From: an uncultured Acidobacteriota bacterium
GTDB taxonomy: Bacteria > Acidobacteriota > Thermoanaerobaculia > UBA5066 > DATFVB01
Direction of reading: 5' to 3'
Length of the DNA stretch: 64,000 nt
Assembly (NCBI GenBank): GCA_963714035.1
Contig: OY970224.1
Span: forward strand, 2,337,996 to 2,401,995
Shown: in pieces, positions 4,958-63,609 of the stretch
How positions within the stretch are numbered: the stretch's first letter is position 1
How the letters are laid out: each line of letters begins with the position of its first letter
The notes under the pieces: model-generated
Databases searched by the model: none
What the model was told of the DNA's origin: nothing
Seen by the model: only the letters and a program-made list of their open reading frames with translations
Program-made: the position numbers and the translations under genes

Positions 4958-6837
4958 TCAGGCGGGCTGCGTCTTCCAGTAAACGGCGTATCGCTCGTCG
5001 AAGACCGCGTGGAGCGGGGCGAGCGGCATCTCGCGGCCGTCGGCCGACGCGGCGCGGAATTCGAGTGACCGTGAGGCCGCCGCCAGCGACCCGTCTCTGA
5101 GCGCCGGCGCGGGCACCGCATCGAGCTTGTACTCGGGCACCGTCCTCGGCTTCGTCGGCTCGGCCCGGAGCGTTGCCGGCGTCAGCCCGTCGCGCCCGAG
5201 CCTTCCGGCGAGGACGATCGGACCGAGCATCGCCGCCTGGGTCGAGGGATCGTCCGGAGTCGGCTCGAACCGCAGACGCATCGGGAGCGTGAGCGTCACG
5301 CGGTCGCCATCTCGCCACACGCGGTCGAGCGCCCACTCGCTTCCCGGCGCGGCAAACCCCTCGACGGGACGCCCGTTCAACGCACCCGCCGCCTTTCCCT
5401 CTGTCCACGCGGGAACGCGGAAGCGGATCTCGGCGCGGACCGGCTCGGCGGCGCGGACGACGATGGCCGTCTCGGCGACCTCCGGGAACCGTGTCTCCTG
5501 CAGGAGCCGAAGCTTCTTCTCCTTCCAGTCGAGCTCGGAAGCGATGAACTGCTCGACGACGGCGGCATCGCCCGCGCGCGACCAGATTTGCTCTCCGACC
5601 TTCGCGAACGACTCGCTTCCCGTGCCGGTGCAGCACCAGAAGTCGTGCAGAGGCGTGCCGAAGAGCTTCCAGTATCCGGAAGCGAGAGGCACGTAGTAGA
5701 GCTTCGATCCGTCCGCGGGATGCTGCGTCCCGAGGATGCCGTTCCAGATCGCGCGCTCGGCGTACTCCGCGTGAGATGTGTCCGAGCTCCATCCCGCGAC
5801 GTGCCGCGTGAGCTTCAGCATGTTGTAGGTCGGACAGCATTCCTCCGTGTACCCGGAGAGCTCCGCCGCGATCACGCCCGGCGCGGCATTCCAGCTCTCT
5901 CCGTTGCTCGTGCCTCCGGTGCAGTAGGAACGACGCGACGTGACCTCGCGCCAGAAGTACTCGGCCGCGTCGCGATATCGACGTTCGCCGGTCAGCTCGT
6001 AGCGCCGCGCCGCGCCGATGATCTTCGGGATCGTCGTGTTGACGTGGAGTCCCTTCAGCTCGTCGCGCCCCTCGGCGAGCGGCCCGAAGATCCGCTCGTG
6101 GTCGAAACGCCGTGCGACTTCGCGCAGATTCTCGTCGCCGGTCAAGGCCGAGAGGTTGTACAGCGCCTCGTTCATTCCGCCGTACTCGCGCTCGAGAATC
6201 CTCGCCATCGCGGCGTCGCCGAGCGGCTGCGTCCATCGCGCCGTCCAGCTCGCGATGCCCCTGGCGACGTCGAGCGCCTGCGCGTTGCCGGTCAGTGTCG
6301 CCGTATCGATCATGCCGGCGAGGATCTTGTGGAGCGTGTAGAACGGCGCCCAGACGCGCTCGTCGCGACGCAGCCGGTCGAAGAGCTCTTCGGGAAAAGC
6401 CGAGAGGTAGCCGTTGCCGTGGGCCTTCTGGCAGCGGGACAGCGCCTCGACCATCGAGGCGCCCCTCGCCTTCGCATCCTCGTCCCCGAAGGCCGCCCAG
6501 CGCATCGCGAGCGCGGAAAGGTAATGACCCGTGTAGTGCCCGCGAAGCTCGTTGTCCGGCGCCTCCCAGCCGCCGAGCGGCGCGGCGGACGACGGAATCC
6601 CGGCCGTCACGCGAAACATGTGGAGCAGCCGGTCGGGATCGAGATTCATCAGGAAGCGGCGATTGACTTCGGCGGCATCGAGAAACGGCCCCGGAAGGAG
6701 CCGCACGCGGGCGAGGTCGAAGGCAACGATGCCCGACGCCGCACGAGGCGTTTCCGCCGGGAAGGCGAAACGCGCGAACGGCAGCGCCGCGGCGGCGGCC
6801 GCTGACCCGGCGAGGAAGCGACGTCGCGTGACCGGCA
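4958..6837 (-). CDS. Glycoside hydrolase family 127 (beta-L-arabinofuranosidase-like, DUF1680) with Tat signal peptide
   Basis: The start is MPVTRRRFLAGSAAAAAALPF (twin-arginine motif). Conserved GH127 blocks are present (HYTGHYLSA, CCTGTG, Cys-rich Zn site). The ORF-track 1024-aa version continues upstream as antisense of the P450 gene and is rejected. Confidence 0.85.
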
Positions 6838-19295: not shown

Positions 19296-19597
19296 GAGGC
19301 GATCTGTCATCCCGAGCGAAGCGGCCTGCCGCGCCGACTCGTCCCGCCGAGGCTTCAGCGAAGGAGGAAGCCCTGGCGAAGGCGGGAAGGATCTTCGCCG
19401 GCAGGCGAGTTGCGGGTTGCGAGTGAAGAGTGCGAGACCGGGGCAGATCCTTCGTCGCTTCCGCCTTCGCTCTCCGAGCTACGGCGGACAAGTCGCTCCT
19501 CAGGATGACAAGGTGGGGAATGTCATCCTGAGCGTAGCGAAGGATCTGCTCCGTCGGTTTTCCGCAACTCGCCAACTCGGAACTCGCCAACTCGTAA
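19296..19597. repeat. Composite block of two dispersed repeat families (GTCATCC[TC]GAGCGAAGCG..AAGGATCTG and GGCGAGTTGCGAGTTGCGAGT) between convergent genes
   Basis: Contains gtcatcccgagcgaagcggcctgc, cagatccttcgtcgcttccgcc, ctcctcaggatgacaaggtggggaatgtcatcctgagcgtagcgaaggatctg, plus ggcgagttgcgggttgcgagtg and its inverse gcaactcgccaactcggaactcgccaactcg. Confidence 0.75.
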
Positions 19598-20173
19598 CTA
19601 GTGTTTCAGCGCCGTCTCCAGCTTCCCGGTGTTCGCGTCCACGATCACCGACAGTCCGCCGCTCTTCGACTGGTCCTTCGTGAAATTCAGGTACCAGAAG
19701 GCGCGTCGCGTCTGCGGCTCGGCATCCGATCCGAGCATGACGGCGTAGCCCTGCGCGATCAGGCTGCCGCCGTGCTCCTTCGCCATCGCGTAGAGCTTCG
19801 CGCCGTCCCGGAAGAAGCCGGGCTTGAGATCCGGAATCCGGCCGGACGGGTTCGGCATCGCGAAGCACGTGAGGTATCCGGCGTTGGTCGAAACGAAGAC
19901 GCTCTGCTTCGCGCTCTCCGACCAGAACTGGAGGTTCCAGGCGACCGACGTTCCGTCGGGTTGCAGCGGGCCGAGCACGGTGTTCTCGATCTTCGCCGGG
20001 ACGGCGTCCTTCTTCCACGCCTTCGCGAAACCTTCCGCTTTACCGTACATGTCGGCGAGTGTCAGCGCCGGCTTCGGCAGGGCGACGGTCTTGCACGCCT
20101 CCTGAGCATCTGCCGTCCAAAAAGCAAAGAGCGCGACCGCGGCAAACAATACACGAAACAGGCCGTTCTTCAC
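19598..20173 (-). CDS. Secreted hypothetical protein
   Basis: Signal peptide MKNGLFRVLFAAVALFAFWTADA. No recognised domain. GTG start. Confidence 0.5.
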   Translation of the reverse strand: MKNGLFRVLFAAVALFAFWTADAQEACKTVALPKPALTLADMYGKAEGFAKAWKKDAVPAKIENTVLGPLQPDGTSVAWNLQFWSESAKQSVFVSTNAGYLTCFAMPNPSGRIPDLKPGFFRDGAKLYAMAKEHGGSLIAQGYAVMLGSDAEPQTRRAFWYLNFTKDQSKSGGLSVIVDANTGKLETALKH

Positions 20174-20229
20174 GAAGTCTCCTCCCGCTGTTTTCGCGGA
20201 AGGGTATCACCGGCGAAGCCAGTGGCGAG

Positions 20230-20314
20230 TTGCGAGTTGCGAGTTGCGAGTGACAAACGCCATGACCCGCCACCCGTAACTCGCAAACGCGAAACTCGCC
20301 ACTGCGGCCGCCCC
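20230..20314. repeat. Hairpin repeat of the GGCGAGTTGCGAGTTGCGAGT family
   Basis: cagtggcgagttgcgagttgcgagttgcgagtgacaaacgccatgacccgccacccgtaactcgcaaacgcgaaactcgccactg is an almost perfect inverted repeat. Related copy at 50075-50184. Confidence 0.75.
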
Positions 20315-21449: not shown

Positions 21450-21573
21450 AACCTCAAGGCGCGGTCAGACGTGCCGGAAGATGCGCGCGGGCGACCGGGC
21501 CGGCGGGCAAGGCGTACCGTGGCGTACGTCGCGCCCGCCGGGCGGTCGCCCGCGTCCCGTATAACGGCGCGTA
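21450..21573. repeat. ~125-bp dispersed element, GCGCGGTCAGACG...CGTACGT...CGTATCACCGCGCC family, copy A
   Basis: Shares termini and an internal ACGTAC core with copies at 37749-37975, 43916-44040 (inverted), 47914-48096, 62883-63010 (inverted) and 63488-63609. Confidence 0.7.
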
Positions 21574-29047: not shown

Positions 29048-29103
29048 GGAGGGCGCTCCTTTTCAGTCTGTGTGACCTGCGTTAACTGCCTAACCACCCG
29101 GGT

Positions 29104-29460
29104 TCAGCGGCGGCACGGCGCGCCTGAGGCGTCCCGAACCGTGATCGCTAGGAAATCGGCGTCGGTTGAAACCATCTCAGGCTGAATGTTCTTGGGAAGT
29201 GCACAGAACTCTTGACGCCGGACTTCGCCGGATAAACTCTTCAGCTGCTCGGCGGATAAGTGGATGAGCCGTGACGAGACCCCAGGATGAACACACGTAT
29301 CTTCGCTCCGTCGGTGAGCGAAACCCGACGCATAGATTGCCGTGTACCATCCTGCACCGCACCATACCGTTCGCTCGACCTCGATGATCGGCTTCTCCTC
29401 AGCGCCAAAGGCCACTGATGCAATCAGCACGATCATTCCGCCAACGGTGACTAGCCGCAT
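29104..29460 (-). CDS. Secreted hypothetical protein
   Basis: Signal peptide MRLVTVGGMIVLIASVAFGA. Confidence 0.45.
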   Translation of the reverse strand: MRLVTVGGMIVLIASVAFGAEEKPIIEVERTVWCGAGWYTAIYASGFAHRRSEDTCVHPGVSSRLIHLSAEQLKSLSGEVRRQEFCALPKNIQPEMVSTDADFLAITVRDASGAPCRR

Positions 29461-29513
29461 AACGACCCGGCTTCAGCGGCAAGGCCGAAGTCCGCTGCAA
29501 GCCGATGTTCGGG
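29461..29513. repeat. Island REP-like hairpin element, copy 1
   Basis: aacgacccggcttcagcggcaaggccgaagtccgctgcaagccgatgttcgg, with paired CAGCGG/CCGCTG and CGAAC/GTTCG arms. Confidence 0.75.
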
Positions 29514-29520
29514 GTGCGCA

Positions 29521-30140
29521 TCATTTGGGCGCCTTTCGCGCACCCGTGTCAACAACGAACTCATGCTGCTTCCGGCTCCACCGATATCGCCTGTCCCCAC
29601 TACTTTGGGTCAGTTGGGCGTTGTTGTACACGCCGACTCGAAAACCGTTCTCGGTGGGCCAGATGCCGATAGAGCTGGATATACCACCGAACCTATCGCC
29701 AGCGATCGGGAGAGCGCTTATGCGACCGCTGGGAGCGATGGTGAGCACGTGGTAGCCAGAGAAACCCATGCAGCTCGGCTGCTCGATTGTGAAATCCGGG
29801 TCGCCGTCGTCGTTGTAATCGTCAAATTCCAGCTGAGTCTCACCGTTTCTCAAGAATGTGAGGTCGGGTTCGCCGGTCACCTCGTTCAAATCGGTAGTGA
29901 CTTGTGTTCCAGTGTCGAGCGTGGCGATTGCTTTAAACTGGCCAACCCACACGTCAGCCGCAGGCCCAGCGCAGCTCTTGGCTTCCGGCCTCGCGTTGCC
30001 GACTTCGATTCGTACGGCCGCCACTTTCATACTCAGATCCGCCCGGACGATGGAGTTTACGACTACGGCTGGCTTTTCGGCCGCCACGGCGGAAACCGTC
30101 ATCGTTAGCCCCGCAAGTATTGCCAAAGTGCTCGAGAACC
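29521..30140 (-). CDS. Secreted hypothetical protein; the start is approximate because the annotated N-terminus runs into REP copy 2
   Basis: Signal-like segment TLAILAGLTMTVSAVAA. The ORF-track start at 30228 would translate the REP element (IGFQRTARLRLAAAEA). Confidence 0.45.
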
Positions 30141-30149
30141 ATCGCGCCC

Positions 30150-30212
30150 CGAACGACCAGGCTTCAGCGGCGGCAAGCCGCAGGCGCGCCGTCCGCTGAA
30201 AGCCGATGTTCG
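30150..30212. repeat. Island REP-like hairpin element, copy 2
   Basis: cgaacgaccaggcttcagcggcggcaagccgcaggcgcgccgtccgctgaaagccgatgttcg. Confidence 0.8.
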
Positions 30213-30770: not shown

Positions 30771-30808
30771 CTTACACCTGCTCAACGGTAAGCCTCGCTC
30801 GGGGCGGG

Positions 30809-30873
30809 CGAACGACCCGAGTTCAGCGGTGGCGAGCCGCAGGCGAGCCGTCCGCTGCAAGCCGATGTTCGGG
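30809..30873. repeat. Island REP-like hairpin element, copy 3
   Basis: cgaacgacccgagttcagcggtggcgagccgcaggcgagccgtccgctgcaagccgatgttcggg. Confidence 0.8.
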
Positions 30874-31624: not shown

Positions 31625-31664
31625 TTCTCAGGCCTTGTCGATTACCCGATACTGCTTACGTTCC

Positions 31665-31728
31665 CGAACGACCTGGCTTCAGCGGCGGCAAGCCGCAGGC
31701 GCGCCGTCCGCTGCAAGCCAATGTTCGG
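31665..31728. repeat. Island REP-like hairpin element, copy 4
   Basis: ccgaacgacctggcttcagcggcggcaagccgcaggcgcgccgtccgctgcaagccaatgttcgg. Confidence 0.8.
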
Positions 31729-32874: not shown

Positions 32875-32951
32875 TCGGGGCGTAGCGCAGCCCGGTAGCG
32901 CTCCTGCTTTGGGAGCAGGAGGTCGTCGGTTCAAATCCGACCGCCCCGACC
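32875..32951 (+). tRNA. tRNA-Pro (anticodon TGG)
   Basis: Acceptor stem CGGGGCG/CGCCCCG, D-stem GCGC/GCGC, anticodon arm CCTGC-TTTGGGA-GCAGG, T-arm GTCGG-TTCAAAT-CCGAC, discriminator A, and CCA encoded. Folded by hand. Confidence 0.85.
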
Positions 32952-34815: not shown

Positions 34816-36078
34816 ATGACCAAGCCGCGCGCTTCCCTCGTTCGGCGGTTCTGGGCGGCGCTCGGCCCGGGACTCATCACGGGCGCGGCCGACGACGATC
34901 CGTCGGGGATCGCGACGTACTCGATCGCCGGGGCGCAGCTCGGGACGAGCCTCCTCTGGACCGCGCTCCTGACCTGGCCGCTGATGGCGTTCGTCCAGAT
35001 GAGCTGCGCGAGGATCGGGATGGTGACCGGCCGCGGCCTCGCCGGGGCGCTCCGGAAGAAGTTCCCGAAGCCGCTCCTCGTCGCGGCGGCCATCGCCCTG
35101 TTCGCGGCGAACGCGCTCAACATCGGCGCGGATCTCTCGGGAATGGCGGATGCCGCCGAGATGCTCACCGGGGGCAACTCGCACGTCTTCGTGATCGTCT
35201 TCGGCGTCGGGATCACCGTCGCGGCGGTGCGGCTGCGGTATTTCCAAATCGCGGCCGTGCTCAAGTGGCTGGCGCTCGCGCTCGGGGCGTACGTCATCGC
35301 GGCGTTCTTCGCGCATCCCCGCTGGGGAACCGTCGTGCACGACACGCTGATCCCTTCCCTTCCCCACGGGAAGACGGCCTGGGCGATGCTCGTCGCGATT
35401 CTCGGCACGACGATCAGCCCGTACCTGTTCTTCTGGCAGGCGTCGCAGGAAGTCGAGGAGGAGAAAGCGATGGGGCGGCGGATGCTGGTGAGCCGCAAGG
35501 GCGCGACCTCGCGCGAGATCACCGACCGGAGGATGGACGTCGGCGCCGGGACCTTCGCCTCCAACCTGGTGATGTTTTTCATCATCCTGACGACCGCGAT
35601 GACGCTCCACAGCCACGGCATCACGAACATCGAGACGTCGAAGCAGGCGGCGCAGGCGCTGGCTCCCCTCGCCGGAAAATTCGCCGCGGCCCTCTTCACG
35701 GTCGGTCTGATCGGCGTGGGGCTTCTCGCGATCCCGACGCTCGCGGGCTCCTCGGCCTATGCCTTCGCCGAGACCTTCGGCTGGAAGCAGGGGCTCGACC
35801 GGAAGCTCCAGAACGCCGGCCGCTTCTACATGGTTCTCGGAACGGCCGTCGTCGTCGGCATCGCCATGGACTTCGCCGGCATCAATCCCGTTCGCGCTCT
35901 TTTCTGGTCGGCGGTCGTCAACGGCCTCCTCGCCCCGTTTCTGCTCGTCGGCGTTTTCGTCGTCGCGGGCGACCGGAAGCTCATGGAAGGCCAGCCGAGC
36001 CCGACGGCGAGCCGGGTGGTCGTGGGAATCACCTGCCTGCTGATGTTCGGCGCCGCCATCGGCATGTTCGTGTTCTAA
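34816..36078 (+). CDS. mntH: NRAMP-family divalent metal (Mn2+/Fe2+) transporter
   Basis: GPG(L/F)...DDP.GIAT.S..GA consensus at the N-terminus. 11 TM segments and conserved NRAMP TM1/TM6 motifs. Confidence 0.85.
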   Translation: MTKPRASLVRRFWAALGPGLITGAADDDPSGIATYSIAGAQLGTSLLWTALLTWPLMAFVQMSCARIGMVTGRGLAGALRKKFPKPLLVAAAIALFAANALNIGADLSGMADAAEMLTGGNSHVFVIVFGVGITVAAVRLRYFQIAAVLKWLALALGAYVIAAFFAHPRWGTVVHDTLIPSLPHGKTAWAMLVAILGTTISPYLFFWQASQEVEEEKAMGRRMLVSRKGATSREITDRRMDVGAGTFASNLVMFFIILTTAMTLHSHGITNIETSKQAAQALAPLAGKFAAALFTVGLIGVGLLAIPTLAGSSAYAFAETFGWKQGLDRKLQNAGRFYMVLGTAVVVGIAMDFAGINPVRALFWSAVVNGLLAPFLLVGVFVVAGDRKLMEGQPSPTASRVVVGITCLLMFGAAIGMFVF

Positions 36079-36112
36079 CGGGCACGCCGGCCCGTCGCCG
36101 AATACACGCGAG

Positions 36113-36230
36113 CAGATCCTTCGTCGCTGTGCTCCTCAGGATGACAGTGACGGAGGGGCGTGATGCTGAACGCTGTCCCCCGTCATCCTGAGCGTTCCCC
36201 CCGTCATCCTGAGCGAAGCGAAGGATCTGC
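36113..36230. repeat. GTCATCCTGAGCGAAGCGAAGGATCTG-family inverted-repeat cluster, left flank of the GIY-YIG gene
   Basis: cagatccttcgtcgctgtgctcctcaggatgac ... ccgtcatcctgagcgttcccccc gtcatcctgagcgaagcgaaggatctg. Confidence 0.8.
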
Positions 36231-36277
36231 CCTCGGCGGGGTTTTCGATCCGACTCGTGCCGAAATAGTCTGTACCG

Positions 36278-36553
36278 GTGAACAGCTACTTCGTCTACAT
36301 CGTGACGAACGCGGGACGCGTCCTCTACATCGGCGTCACAAACGATCTCGCTCGTCGGATCGCCGAACATCGGTCGGGCCTGATCCCGGGCTTCAGTCGG
36401 AAGTATCACCTCTTCAAGCTCGTTCACTTCGAAGAGACGCCGGACGTGAAGGCGGCGATTGCGCGGGAAAAGCAGATCAAGGGGTGGACGAGAGCTCGCA
36501 AGATCGTCCTGATCGAGTCGACGAATCCTGAATGGAAGGACCTCGCGTCCTGA
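36278..36553 (+). CDS. GIY-YIG nuclease family protein (small, standalone)
   Basis: YFVYIVTN..GRVLYIGVTNDLARRIAEHR...........KLV..E matches GIY-YIG cd10448-like proteins. 91 aa. Confidence 0.85.
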   Translation: MNSYFVYIVTNAGRVLYIGVTNDLARRIAEHRSGLIPGFSRKYHLFKLVHFEETPDVKAAIAREKQIKGWTRARKIVLIESTNPEWKDLAS

Positions 36554-36568
36554 ACCGAGGACCGATGG

Positions 36569-36634
36569 CAGATCCTTCGCTCCGCTCAGGATGACAGAGA
36601 AAGGGTGCCACGTCGCTGTGCTCCTCAGGATGAC
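36569..36634. repeat. Same repeat family, right flank of the GIY-YIG gene
   Basis: cagatccttcgctccgctcaggatgac ... cgtcgctgtgctcctcaggatgac. Confidence 0.8.
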
Positions 36635-36706
36635 ATGGTCCGCAGGTCCGCGATCTGGGAGGCCGCAGCGTTCCAGCCGCAAAGCGGCGCGCGCGAGGCC
36701 GACGGA

Positions 36707-37486
36707 TCAGCCGAGGCGGACCGTGAGCATCGAAATCGACCCTCCATCCACGCCCTCGACCGGAAACGTCACCTTCTCGCCAGGCCGCCGGGCGCCGAGC
36801 ACGTAGAGGAGCGGCAGGTAGTGCTCGGGAGTCGGGATCGAGAGCATCGCATCGGCGCCGAGGGATTCGTAGTCGACGAGCGGCGCGTCGTTCCCTTCCT
36901 CGAGAAGCCGGCGCGCGCGTTCCTCGAACCGCACCGCCCAGTCGAACGGAGCGACGGGATGGCGTCCCCACGCATAGGCGTGCAGGTTGTGGACGAGATT
37001 GCCGCTCCCGACGACGAGCACCCCCTCGTCGCGCAGCGGCCCGAGGAGCTTGCCGATCTCGTAATGGAATCGCGGCGGCCGCGTCTCGTCGATCGAGAGC
37101 TGGACGACCGGCACGTCCGCGCCGGGATAGACGCGGCAGAGAACCGACCAGGCGCCGTGATCCAGCCCCCAGCGCCGGTCCCGCGCGACGGGCAGGGGCG
37201 CGAGAAGGTCCGCGACGCGCTCGGCGAGCGCGGGGCTTCCCGGCGCCGGATACTCGACCGCGAAGAGCTCCCTCGGGAAGCCGCCAAAATCATGTATTGT
37301 TCGCGGGGTCTCCATCGCCGTGACCGCCGTTCCCGGAACGAACCAGTGCGCGGAAATCGCGAGGACCGCGGACGGGCGCGGGATTTCGGCTCCGATCGCA
37401 GCCCAGGCTCGGGTCCACGGGTTGTCCTCGATCGCGTTCATCGGGTTCCCATGGCCGAAGAAAAGAGTGGGCATCGTGGTCGGCAT
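36707..37486 (-). CDS. Extradiol ring-cleavage dioxygenase class III subunit B (4,5-DOPA dioxygenase / YgiD-like)
   Basis: LFFGHGNPMNA ... ISAHW ... DHGAWSVL ... VVGSGNLVHNL motifs. The start is M14 or M18 of the ORF-track product. Confidence 0.8.
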   Translation of the reverse strand: MPTTMPTLFFGHGNPMNAIEDNPWTRAWAAIGAEIPRPSAVLAISAHWFVPGTAVTAMETPRTIHDFGGFPRELFAVEYPAPGSPALAERVADLLAPLPVARDRRWGLDHGAWSVLCRVYPGADVPVVQLSIDETRPPRFHYEIGKLLGPLRDEGVLVVGSGNLVHNLHAYAWGRHPVAPFDWAVRFEERARRLLEEGNDAPLVDYESLGADAMLSIPTPEHYLPLLYVLGARRPGEKVTFPVEGVDGGSISMLTVRLG

Positions 37487-37574: not shown

Positions 37575-37740
37575 GCGAAATGCCGGCAGCCGCAGACGAG
37601 GGCGAGAGCCCTTCCCGTCATTGCGAGCCGAAGGCCGAAGCAATCTCCGAGTCTGGAAATCGCTTCGCTGCGCTCGCGATGACGCGACCGAGATCCCTCG
37701 TCGCATTCGCTCCTCGGGATGACAGGACTCACCCGCCGAC
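37575..37740. repeat. Hairpin repeat, a variant of the GTCAT(T/C)-GAGCGAAG family
   Basis: cgtcattgcgagccgaaggccgaagcaatctc ... gaaatcgcttcgctgcgctcgcgatgacg is an inverted repeat, followed by cattcgctcctcgggatgacagg. Confidence 0.65.
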
Positions 37741-37748
37741 GACATCAG

Positions 37749-37975
37749 AGCGCGGCAAGACGTGCCGGAAGGTGCGCCCGGGCGGCGCCCTGGTCCGACC
37801 TTGCGTGAGGAATGACCGCCCTCGATTCGGACTCCGATGAGGCGCGGCCAGGCGCGAGCCCGGCGGGATGCGGGCGCCCGAGCCCGCGGCCGAGGCATAC
37901 CGGGGCGTATGTTGAGGCCGCGGGTCGTCGCGCACGCGCCCGCCCGGCTCGATGCATCGCCGCGCACACGATAGG
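37749..37975. repeat. ~125-bp GCGCGG...CCGCGC family, copy B (two degenerate tandem units)
   Basis: gcgcggcaagacgtgccggaaggtgcgc... and gcgcgagcccggcgggatgcggg...ggcataccggggcgtatgttgagg...gatgcatcgccgcgc. Confidence 0.7.
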
Positions 37976-39123: not shown

Positions 39124-39313
39124 GTCTTCCGCGCTCACCGCCGTGAGCGCGGAAGACTCATCACGCCGAAGCTCCGGCAGGAGCGAAGGCGGATGAGCGC
39201 GCGCGGATGGGCCCCGAAGCTCTGCAATCGAAATCGCCGAGGCCAGATCCTTCGCGCAGTTCACCTCCGCGAAAGCGGGGGCTCAGGATGACAGCGAGAG
39301 GGTCAAACTTGAA

Positions 39314-47786: not shown

Positions 47787-47913
47787 TTCGGCGGCGCGGC
47801 GTCATTTCCCGCGCGTTCCGCTTCGAGAGGTTTGGGCGGCCGGCGTCCCGGAGGTCGCGGTGGGAACGTCAAGGCGAGGGCAACATTTTCGATCGGACCT
47901 GAAAGCGCGTCGA

Positions 47914-48096
47914 AGCGCGAGCCCGGCGGGATGCGGGTGGGCCGCGTCTCGCCCCCATTGCGACCACGGCGAAGCGCGGAGAGACGTGCGGGAAGGCGGG
48001 TTCGGGCGGCCTGCCGACGCCTAAGGCGTACTGAAAACGTACGTCGTGGCGGCGGCAGGCCGCACGGGCCCGCATAACCGCGCGTATGTCCGCGCT
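47914..48096. repeat. ~125-bp GCGCGG...CCGCGC family, copy D
   Basis: gcgcgagcccggcgggatgcgggtgggccgcg... then cgcggagagacgtgcgggaaggcggg...aaggcgtactgaaaacgtacgtcgtgg...cataaccgcgcgtatgtccgcgc. The 3' end overlaps the stop codon of the 48095 gene. Confidence 0.7.
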
Positions 48097-50074: not shown

Positions 50075-50184
50075 GCAGTGGCGAGTTCCGAGTTGCGAGT
50101 CAAAAGTCGAAGATGAAGAGCCTCCCCGCGCCCCGGATGCCCATTCCCGACTCTCAACTCGCAACTGAACGACTCGCCACTGCG
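50075..50184. repeat. Hairpin repeat of the GGCGAGTTGCGAGT family
   Basis: gcagtggcgagttccgagttgcgagtcaaaag...ctctcaactcgcaactgaacgactcgccactgcggc is an inverted repeat located between ruvA and ruvB. Confidence 0.75.
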
Positions 50185-63487: not shown

Positions 63488-63609
63488 GCGCGGTCAGACG
63501 CGAGCCCGCCGGGATGCGGGTCGGCCGCGAGATCCCGAGGCGTACCGGCGCGTACGTTGAGGGTGTCGCGGGCGGCACGCGCCCGGCCGGCTCGATGTAT
63601 CACCGCGCC
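63488..63609. repeat. ~125-bp GCGCGG...CCGCGC family, copy F
   Basis: gcgcggtcagacgcgagcccgccgggatgcgggtcggccgcgagatcccgaggcgtaccggcgcgtacgttgagggtgtcgcgggcggcacgcgcccggccggctcgatgtatcaccgcgcc. Confidence 0.7.

Follow-up and report, generated by a model that had tools for sequence, protein, structure and literature searches.

A 64,000-nt window of contig OY970224.1 from an uncultured Acidobacteriota bacterium of the class Thermoanaerobaculia (GCA_963714035.1) contains a small gene for a GIY-YIG nuclease, here called ssn, which lies between inverted copies of a dispersed hairpin repeat, here called the unit. The gene (36278..36553, plus strand, GTG start, TGA stop) occurs once in the window and encodes a single-domain protein of 91 amino acids (aa), residues 4-75 of which match the GIY-YIG family of Pfam (PF01541, E=1.3e-16); the only other Pfam domain observed was a weak match, below the cutoff, to the related T5orf172 family (E=0.0034). 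Its position is chromosomal and intergenic, between the stop codons of an upstream mntH gene (34816-36078, plus strand; Nramp, E=6e-79) and a downstream gene for a LigB-type 4,5-DOPA dioxygenase (36707-37486, minus strand).

The left repeat flank begins 35 nt past the mntH stop at 36078, the distance given in the initial annotation, with a full long-form unit on the minus strand (36113-36146; TGTCATCCTGAGGAGCACAGCGACGAAGGATCTG in the minus-strand reading), which carries two stacked GA/AG motifs and has long forms of the same design at other loci. It is followed on the plus strand by a 5′ half unit, GTCATCCTGAGCG (36182-36194), which stands 8 nt ahead of a full unit and within an 18-nt direct repeat with 21-nt spacing, and then by that full short-form unit (36203-36229, plus strand), GTCAT-CCT-GA-GC-GAA-GC-GA-AGG-AT-CTG, a hairpin by covariation. 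Downstream of ssn, an inverted full short-form unit (36569-36595, minus strand) is succeeded by the 5′ part of a long-form unit devoid of its 3′ strand (36611-36635, minus strand), which perfectly repeats the 25 nt at 36122-36146. The gene is bracketed by a 34-nt inverted repeat (36203-36236 / 36562-36595, 94% complementary), and the 5′ ends of the inverted unit pair point outward. The placement of a 91-aa GIY-YIG gene between repeat clusters, originally read from the letters of the sequence, was thereby borne out by the Pfam match and by the units mapped from 36113-36146 to 36611-36635, and the peptide motif VILSEAKDL was indeed found to arise from translation of the repeat (GTC ATC CTG AGC GAA GCG AAG GAT CTG). 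Moreover, the sequence GTCATCCTGAGS, with at most one mismatch, occurred 10 times in the window against 0.6 expected, a number reached in none of 100 shuffles; this feature of the locus is real and is no chance pattern. A promoter scan of positions 36000-36750 found no sigma-70-like promoter, and the single terminator-like match, where 0.5 were expected by chance, overlapped the 3′ edge of the upstream unit.

The hairpin unit and its association with ssn

Comparison of the window with related loci revealed a common unit design, (T)GTC / AT-NNN / GA / GC / 3-nt loop or larger inner hairpin / GC / GA / N'N'N'-AT / CT, in which a 5-bp stem (AT-NNN) is followed by tandem G.A/A.G and then by G-C and C-G, closing the 3-nt loop or the larger inner hairpin, and in which the conserved 5′-(T)GTC and 3′-CT flanks are unpaired. 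The triplets NNN and N'N'N' remain complementary despite sequence change, as in the CCT/AGG, TGC/GCA, CGC/GCG and CCC/GGG stems of the window. Among the 329 units of all fetched loci, 238 had an exactly complementary triplet, compared with 15 when the triplet was taken from another unit, and at least 11 triplet types were found with their partners. In a gap-free alignment (A2) of 47 distinct cores, picked without demanding complementarity, 95.7% of the cells were paired and 44 were compensatory, against 10.1+-3.2 in shuffles (0/500), with far lower values in slid controls. The loop-closing pair covaried as well (C-G to U-A), and the GA...GA positions were invariant. The units are hairpins under selection for pairing. 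At these positions, tandem sheared G.A pairs would be expected to enclose a mini-hairpin of the GCGAAGC type. In the long-form units two GA/GC modules are stacked (GAG-GAGCNCAGCGAC-GA), and loop inserts of 30-60 nt are tolerated (19444-19509 and 39244-39292).

More than 3,000 relatives of the 91-aa protein were present in the databases, many of them on short contigs, the best named one coming from a Thermoanaerobaculia metagenome-assembled genome (81% identity). A homologue scan restricted to one genome per species returned 80 loci whose proteins were 53-65% identical and came from many phyla, including Cyanobacteriota, Acidobacteriota, Chloroflexota, Bacillota, Bacteroidota, Pseudomonadota, Patescibacteria and others. 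The core GTCATNNNGAG was present within 300 nt of the ssn homologue in 70 of 83 loci, with 327 matches against 18.6 expected in 720 kb, and its density less than 200 nt from the gene was about 40-fold that found beyond 1 kb, as estimated from binned counts. It lay mainly on the plus strand upstream of the gene and on the minus strand downstream, and inverted unit flanks surrounded the gene in most of the 83 homologue loci. The loci without exact GTCATNNNGAG showed plain-stem versions in the same frame, such as TGTCATTCCCGCGAAAGCGGGAATCT, and a Rhizobium homologue was flanked by GTCATCCCAGGG...CCCTGGGATC. Similarity between the arms often begins exactly at (T)TGTCAT, the upstream unit lying 20-75 nt ahead of the start codon and the downstream one 1-13 nt behind the stop. 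The association of ssn with the repeat is genuine and highly general, which upholds the early suggestion that the nuclease goes with the repeat.

Where whole replicons were visible, one or two gene copies were observed per replicon. Plasmid and phage records gave few protein matches: ssn was rare on plasmids, and the phage matches were at most 42% identical. Some 'plasmid' records are chromosomes, such as the 2.17-Mb N. gonorrhoeae replicon NZ_CP119142.1, listed as a plasmid in PLSDB. On plasmid p1 of Planktothrix agardhii (locus L084, NZ_LR882964.1 18847-19131), ssn and its unit arrays are placed inside a defence island, between an MmeI-type restriction-modification gene and the DISARM gene drmA.

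Probable assignment to the Ssn family

The N. gonorrhoeae homologue, 48% identical to the window protein, is flanked by GTCATTCCCGCGCAGGCGGGAATC, which we take to be the Neisseria dRS3/NTS repeat, and it was the recognition of dRS3 beside this homologue that established the link with Ssn. The Ssn/SRM system was described by Chenal et al. (2025, Nat Commun 16:2388, PMC11893778). SsnA, a 94-aa protein of N. meningitidis (CDD cd10448), binds NTS (CGTCATTCCCGCGMAVGCGGGAATCYRG) solely as single-stranded DNA (ssDNA), on one strand, and cuts a few nt upstream of the repeat; cutting depends most on the three bases before the palindrome and binding most on the C just after it (PMC11893778). SsnA is inactive on double-stranded DNA and on RNA, the latter being unbound in vitro, and its cutting is abolished by the substitutions Y6A, Y17A and E64A, while deletion of ssnA increases transformation by NTS-bearing DNA about fivefold (PMC11893778). 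An 'Ssn-related motif' (SRM) was found near 71% of the homologues, and the authors considered the NTS-ssnA-NTS layout to be insertion sequence (IS)-like and to resemble the association of repetitive extragenic palindromes with their tyrosine transposases (REP/RAYT) (PMC11893778).

Pairwise BLASTP of the 91-aa protein against the gonococcal orthologue gave E=4e-27, and tblastn against the N. gonorrhoeae chromosome gave E=2e-17, where the published criterion is E<1e-10. NMV_0044 was represented by the gonococcal open reading frame, which agrees with the published numbering in its 94 codons and in the positions of Y6, Y17 and E64. This ssnA orthologue (L086, NZ_CP119142.1, ~1881707-1881991) lacks an in-frame start codon (ATG, GTG or TTG) where one would be expected, the codons before VYIL being ATT ATA TGC ACG. 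Residues Y7, Y17 and E64 of the window protein are the counterparts of Y6, Y17 and E64, which are catalytic in N. meningitidis SsnA; Y7 and E64 were invariant and Y17 was conserved in at least 90% of 31 homologues (alignment A1). Similarly, its length of 91 aa agrees with the single-domain size of Ssn proteins (about 90-100 aa), and the 34-nt inverted arms reproduce the NTS-ssn-NTS flanking arrangement. NCBIfam had no match for the protein, its solved relatives were only distant UPF0213 proteins (1zg2 and 1ywl), and PADLOC returned just a marginal match to PDC-S02 (E=0.0065). Initial literature searches brought up nothing relevant on GIY-YIG proteins with REP, RAYT or miniature inverted-repeat transposable elements, on COG2827 or on the repeat sequence itself, and no follow-up papers to Chenal et al. 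(2025) were found.

Because the protein aligns with its gonococcal counterpart and retains the catalytic residues, and because the repeats share the hallmarks of a 5′ GTCAT, a hairpin and a C after the palindrome, the locus was assigned to the Ssn/SRM systems, the 91-aa protein being very probably a member of the Ssn family and the GTCAT...ATCT units its cognate motifs. The biochemical properties of four homologues (Chenal et al. 2025) suggest that the 91-aa protein would bind the unit only in single-stranded form and only on the GTCAT strand, and would then cut a few nt 5′ of GTCAT, ignoring duplex DNA and RNA. Around ssn, by homology, the cuts would fall just outside each arm and on opposite strands. 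The proposal of the initial annotation that the nuclease may target the repeat is supported, by analogy, by the published work on these homologues (PMC11893778). In Neisseria, incoming transforming DNA in single-stranded form is restricted by Ssn when it bears the repeat (PMC11893778). The role in the window genome is likely similar and, speculatively, would consist in the control, by restriction or trimming, of ssDNA intermediates that arise at repeat-marked sites during uptake, recombination or replication. Conceivably, the units are also spread by the nuclease itself.

Several points weigh against this assignment. The published SRM pattern, HGTCWYN(0-2)YYVSBRHN(0-5)WNVSBRGN(0-2)RNCYNB, had no match in the window, so that membership of the repeat rests on its shared design (GTCAT, hairpin, ATC) and not on the published definition. 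Nearest-neighbour folding of seven single units as DNA was weak and non-significant (z -0.6 to +1.2), and the hairpin claim therefore depends on covariation and not on thermodynamics. Natural transformation is, to our knowledge, not known for this lineage, and the role described in Neisseria may therefore not transfer to it. In the 83 loci, the SRM pattern gave 9 matches against 6.8 expected and lay near the gene in 4/83, compared with 70/83 for GTCATNNNGAG; it picked up the NTS-like units of L029, L043 and L047 alone, apart from one match in L054, which is not a unit-like hairpin. Since the pattern misses the units, the Ssn subfamily of the 91-aa protein appears to use a distinct, G.A-interrupted class of hairpin.

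The system as such is already described; what is new here is a repeat variant missed by the published pattern, together with gene-less 27-mers, an empty site and half-unit arrays. Ssn nucleases are the first known site-specific endonucleases acting on ssDNA only and are under development as tools, and each further pair of enzyme and repeat represents an added specificity. The window locus and roughly 70 related loci delimit a class of repeats that is very widespread and is characterized by tandem G.A pairs and a loop of the GCGAAGC type. Because the SRM pattern misses this class, the published counts of ssn genes with a cognate repeat and of repeat-carrying genomes are probably too low, especially for soil phyla.

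Dispersed units, insertion polymorphism and the origin of the repeats

The unit of about 27 nt, (T)GTCAT-NNN-GAG...CGA-N'N'N'-ATCT, recurs in three further intergenic regions of the window, none of which has a nuclease, in agreement with what had first been noticed, and the units of the window are intergenic and mostly lie between convergent genes. The first of these regions holds a three-unit cluster on mixed strands between convergent gene ends (19306..19548), composed of a degenerate unit whose loop contains a long insert (19306-~19396, plus strand), a long-form unit whose loop carries an inserted 33-nt hairpin (19444-19509, minus strand) and a short-form unit (19522-19548, plus strand). 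The second is also a three-unit cluster on mixed strands (37617..37723), the stems of which differ from each other yet remain complementary: a unit with a TGC/GCA stem (37617-37646, plus strand), one with a CGC/GCG stem (37657-37683, minus strand) and a long-form unit with a CCC/GGG stem (37690-37723, minus strand). The third is a solo unit with an enlarged inner hairpin (39244..39292, minus strand).

Other repeats were observed around these clusters and elsewhere in the window. Heptamer repeats, (GAGTTGC)n, occur at 19401-19429, 20214-20256 and 50077-50105 and, inverted, at 19553-19600, and two inverted blocks of them flank the unit doublet 19444-19548. Two more dispersed intergenic repeats of ~42 nt adjoin the 37.6-kb unit cluster, the first at 21451-21493, 37742-37784 and 47966-48008, and the second at 37842-37883, 47905-47946 and 63488-63529 as well as in a related contig, L089. 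A GAAGCTCCGGCAGGAGCGAAGGCGGA element at 39168-39193, downstream of a 378-aa gene, is duplicated in the related contigs L087 and L088 (first 200 nt, reverse strand), and a hairpin related to it, TCCGCC...GGCGGA, is found inside the loop of the long-form unit 19444-19509. A repeat of 46-65 nt (…TTCAGCGGCGGCAAGCCGCAGGCGCGCCGTCCGCTGAAAGCCGATGTTCG) is located at 29089-29134, 29475-29524, 30148-30212, 30807-30871 and 31663-31727, that is, every 660-1060 nt; it runs into apparent ATG starts and may be a conserved leader of paralogous genes.

Outside the window, the exact 27-mer GTCATCCTGAGCGAAGCGAAGGATCTG was found on at least 120 metagenome contigs with G+C contents of 34-73%. None of the 80 contigs fetched from these carried an ssn homologue, although in 65 of the 80 the sequence extended inward from the unit for 450 nt or more, and in 31 an inverted partner was placed 10-120 nt downstream of the solo 27-mer, forming a REPIN-like doublet. 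Moreover, 5′ half-units, (T)GTCATNNNGAGCG, of 12-14 nt form same-strand arrays with a 20-23-nt period ahead of full units in many phyla, for example in the window (36177-36215), in L083 (1176-1270), in L084 (2698-2760 and 3339-3400) and in L058, L055, L073 and L003. Among 92 adjacent pairs of half-units, 33 were plain tandem duplications; the 5-8-nt spacers mostly differ, which indicates that the half-units and not the spacers are conserved. Ssn cuts a hairpin that is divided between two strands bearing arbitrary loop extensions (Chenal et al. 2025, PMC11893778), and each half-unit could therefore pair with the single 3′ strand, giving an alternative cut site. The half-units may instead be footprints of repair.

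The region between mntH and the dioxygenase gene was compared in relatives, as had been proposed at the outset. The closest dioxygenase homologues were P0122 (89%), with the same neighbours in L087 and L088, and P0124 (81%) in L090. In L087 and L088, which share the gene order of the window and are 92% (mntH) and 89% (LigB) identical to it at the nucleotide level, only 53 nt separate the two stop codons and ssn is absent. No GTCATNNNGAG unit was found anywhere in these two ~7-kb contigs, which end 125-168 nt past the stop of the 378-aa gene and partly cover the region matching 39244..39292. L090 has 257 nt between the two genes and no unit. Similarly, the unit cluster 37617-37723 is absent from the matching intergenic region of L087, L088 and L089. 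The closest ssn homologues (81-82%) have a DUF1015 gene on one side and a methyltransferase/RNase PH operon on the other, and a 76% homologue follows a phosphoribosyltransferase gene; the cassette has a G+C content of 58-61%, against 66-73% in its flanks. Its absence in relatives, the other contexts of its homologues and its lower G+C content indicate that the gene-plus-repeat block is an insertion in the window lineage. Aligning the empty site of L087 and L088 to the intergenic flanks in the window did not fix the insertion boundaries, the short spacers being too diverged. The units come and go quickly. L090, which is free of ssn and units at the locus, also carries a separate Y1_Tnp gene of the IS200/RAYT type (5196-6149), ~1.6 kb from the Nramp gene.

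A perfect direct repeat of 25 nt, CGTCGCTGTGCTCCTCAGGATGACA, brackets the ssn cassette (36122-36146 and 36611-36635, 489 nt apart, 100% identical). On the minus strand it constitutes the 5′ part of the long-form unit, which is complete in the left copy and truncated in the right one, and its boundary is 1 nt 5′ of GTCAT. By analogy with Neisseria, this boundary is near the position where Ssn would cut, and the repeat could be a duplication made by insertion.

No near-identical cassettes indicative of recent transfer were found across species, the maximum being 86% nucleotide identity, and similarity tracks taxonomy. These observations are consistent with a nuclease of low copy number that is inherited for the most part vertically and has many dispersed sites, on the model of REP/RAYT. 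A tentative extension, compatible with the Ssn/SRM assignment and adding to it an origin for the repeats, is that the single-copy nuclease multiplies the hairpin units and their F...R doublets, presumably by cleaving ssDNA that the host then repairs or replicates, while the gene itself is stationary, vertically inherited and domesticated. The REPtron architecture, with the gene between inverted hairpin units, argues for it, as do the contrast between the one or two gene copies per replicon and the many gene-less units (0/80 with the gene), the inverted partners of 31/80 solo units, the absence of the window's unit clusters in relatives that are 89-92% identical, the taxonomic distribution of gene similarity without near-identical cross-species cassettes, and the fact that the analogy was already raised by Chenal et al. 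(PMC11893778). However, GIY-YIG enzymes hydrolyse DNA, form no covalent intermediate and have no known strand-transfer chemistry, and there is no direct evidence tying Ssn to repeat multiplication. The clean presence/absence polymorphism and the half-unit arrays offer material on the question of whether Ssn spreads its own repeats.

A rather doubtful variant is that the unit-ssn-unit cassette, the solo units and the doublets all move by an undescribed ssDNA route that employs the hydrolytic GIY-YIG nuclease. Each strand would be cleaved by Ssn immediately 5′ of GTCAT, and the strand so released or copied would then be joined, by the replication or repair machinery of the host, to another unit that had been cut; the 25-nt direct repeat, the half-unit arrays and the unit-free empty site would be the footprints of this process. 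If that were true, Ssn/SRM would represent a second, mechanistically independent replicator of the REP/RAYT type, spread over most bacterial phyla, with one 27-mer common to genomes of 34-73% G+C.

The initial annotation had suggested that the locus is a small, selfish mobile cassette and that the other copies of the repeat could be empty sites or solo remnants. If it were such an autonomous cassette, a unit-gene-unit module of ~390 nt would copy itself into units or doublets, by homing or by ssDNA cut-and-insert, and the solo doublets would be empty targets or decayed copies. The tight IS-like packing, the inverted repeats that often begin exactly at (T)TGTCAT, the presence/absence at the mntH-LigB locus, the other contexts of the closest homologues, the drop in G+C (0.58-0.61 against 0.66-0.73) and the bracketing perfect 25-nt direct repeat, with its boundary 1 nt 5′ of GTCAT, are all consistent with such a cassette. 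Nevertheless, the low gene copy number, the absence of the gene from all 80 identical-unit loci (of at least 120), the cross-species cassette identity of at most 86% nt and the rarity of the gene on plasmids, with only distant phage matches, make selfish self-copying unlikely; the 25-nt repeat is a single case, and the empty site in relatives lacks a unit, which leaves no obvious target. The absence of the block in relatives, the differing contexts of its homologues and its lower G+C content still stand in favour of mobility, self-mobility of the cassette being only suggested. The remaining copies of the repeat more plausibly represent dispersed cognate sites, comparable to REP or NTS repeats, than empty sites; the true empty site in relatives is free of units.

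An RNA-level role for the units, for instance in termination, in mRNA stabilisation or as a structured RNA, with a regulatory or incidental reason for their proximity to a GIY-YIG gene, would suit their intergenic position, mostly between convergent genes, and the one terminator-like match at the 3′ edge of the upstream unit (although 0.5 were expected by chance), but is highly improbable, given that the units occur in both orientations, so that no single transcript has the G.A-containing strand at both ends, that Rfam matched none of them at the gathering threshold and, at a lax one, gave nothing but noise (E>2) around the locus, that SsnA does not bind RNA in vitro (PMC11893778) and that no T run stands behind them. 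A hammerhead-like or other ribozyme core, considered on account of the letters CUGAG...CGAA, was rejected by inspection, with no Rfam match and units in both orientations. Within the window, only a tRNA gene at 32876-32949 reached the gathering threshold of Rfam.

Comparison with known systems

The system closest to the window locus is Ssn/NTS, represented by N. meningitidis SsnA. Both comprise a single-domain GIY-YIG protein of about 91-94 aa with a catalytic Tyr, Tyr and Glu, encoded between inverted hairpin repeats that have a 5′ GTCAT and a C right behind the palindrome and that are dispersed in intergenic regions. In contrast, the window hairpin has a short 5-bp stem, a tandem G.A interruption and a GCGAAGC-type mini-hairpin or a variable inner hairpin; half-unit arrays and pairs of long and short units do not appear in the main text of Chenal et al.; and the host is an acidobacterium without known competence.

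With REP/BIME elements, their RAYT proteins (TnpA-REP) and REPINs, the locus shares a low-copy nuclease gene within short inverted hairpin repeats, hundreds of scattered intergenic repeat copies, often as inverted doublets, an ssDNA substrate and a conserved unpaired motif 5′ of the hairpin, which is GTAG in REP and GTC in the window units. However, the 91-aa protein is a GIY-YIG hydrolase and not an HUH/Y1 transposase (no PF01797), and a covalent DNA-protein intermediate is not expected. The IS200/IS605 'peel and paste' elements are likewise small, and their ends are subterminal hairpins recognized on one strand as ssDNA; unlike the window cassette, they carry both hairpins on one strand, so that their ends are not inverted repeats, they use a Y1 HUH enzyme and they reach a higher copy number. 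Finally, the free-standing GIY-YIG homing endonucleases, such as I-TevI and the Seg proteins, have the same type of catalytic domain in a small, selfish-looking gene, but they possess extra DNA-binding modules, cut duplex DNA and reside in phage genomes or introns, whereas the window protein is a bare catalytic domain in a chromosomal intergenic context.

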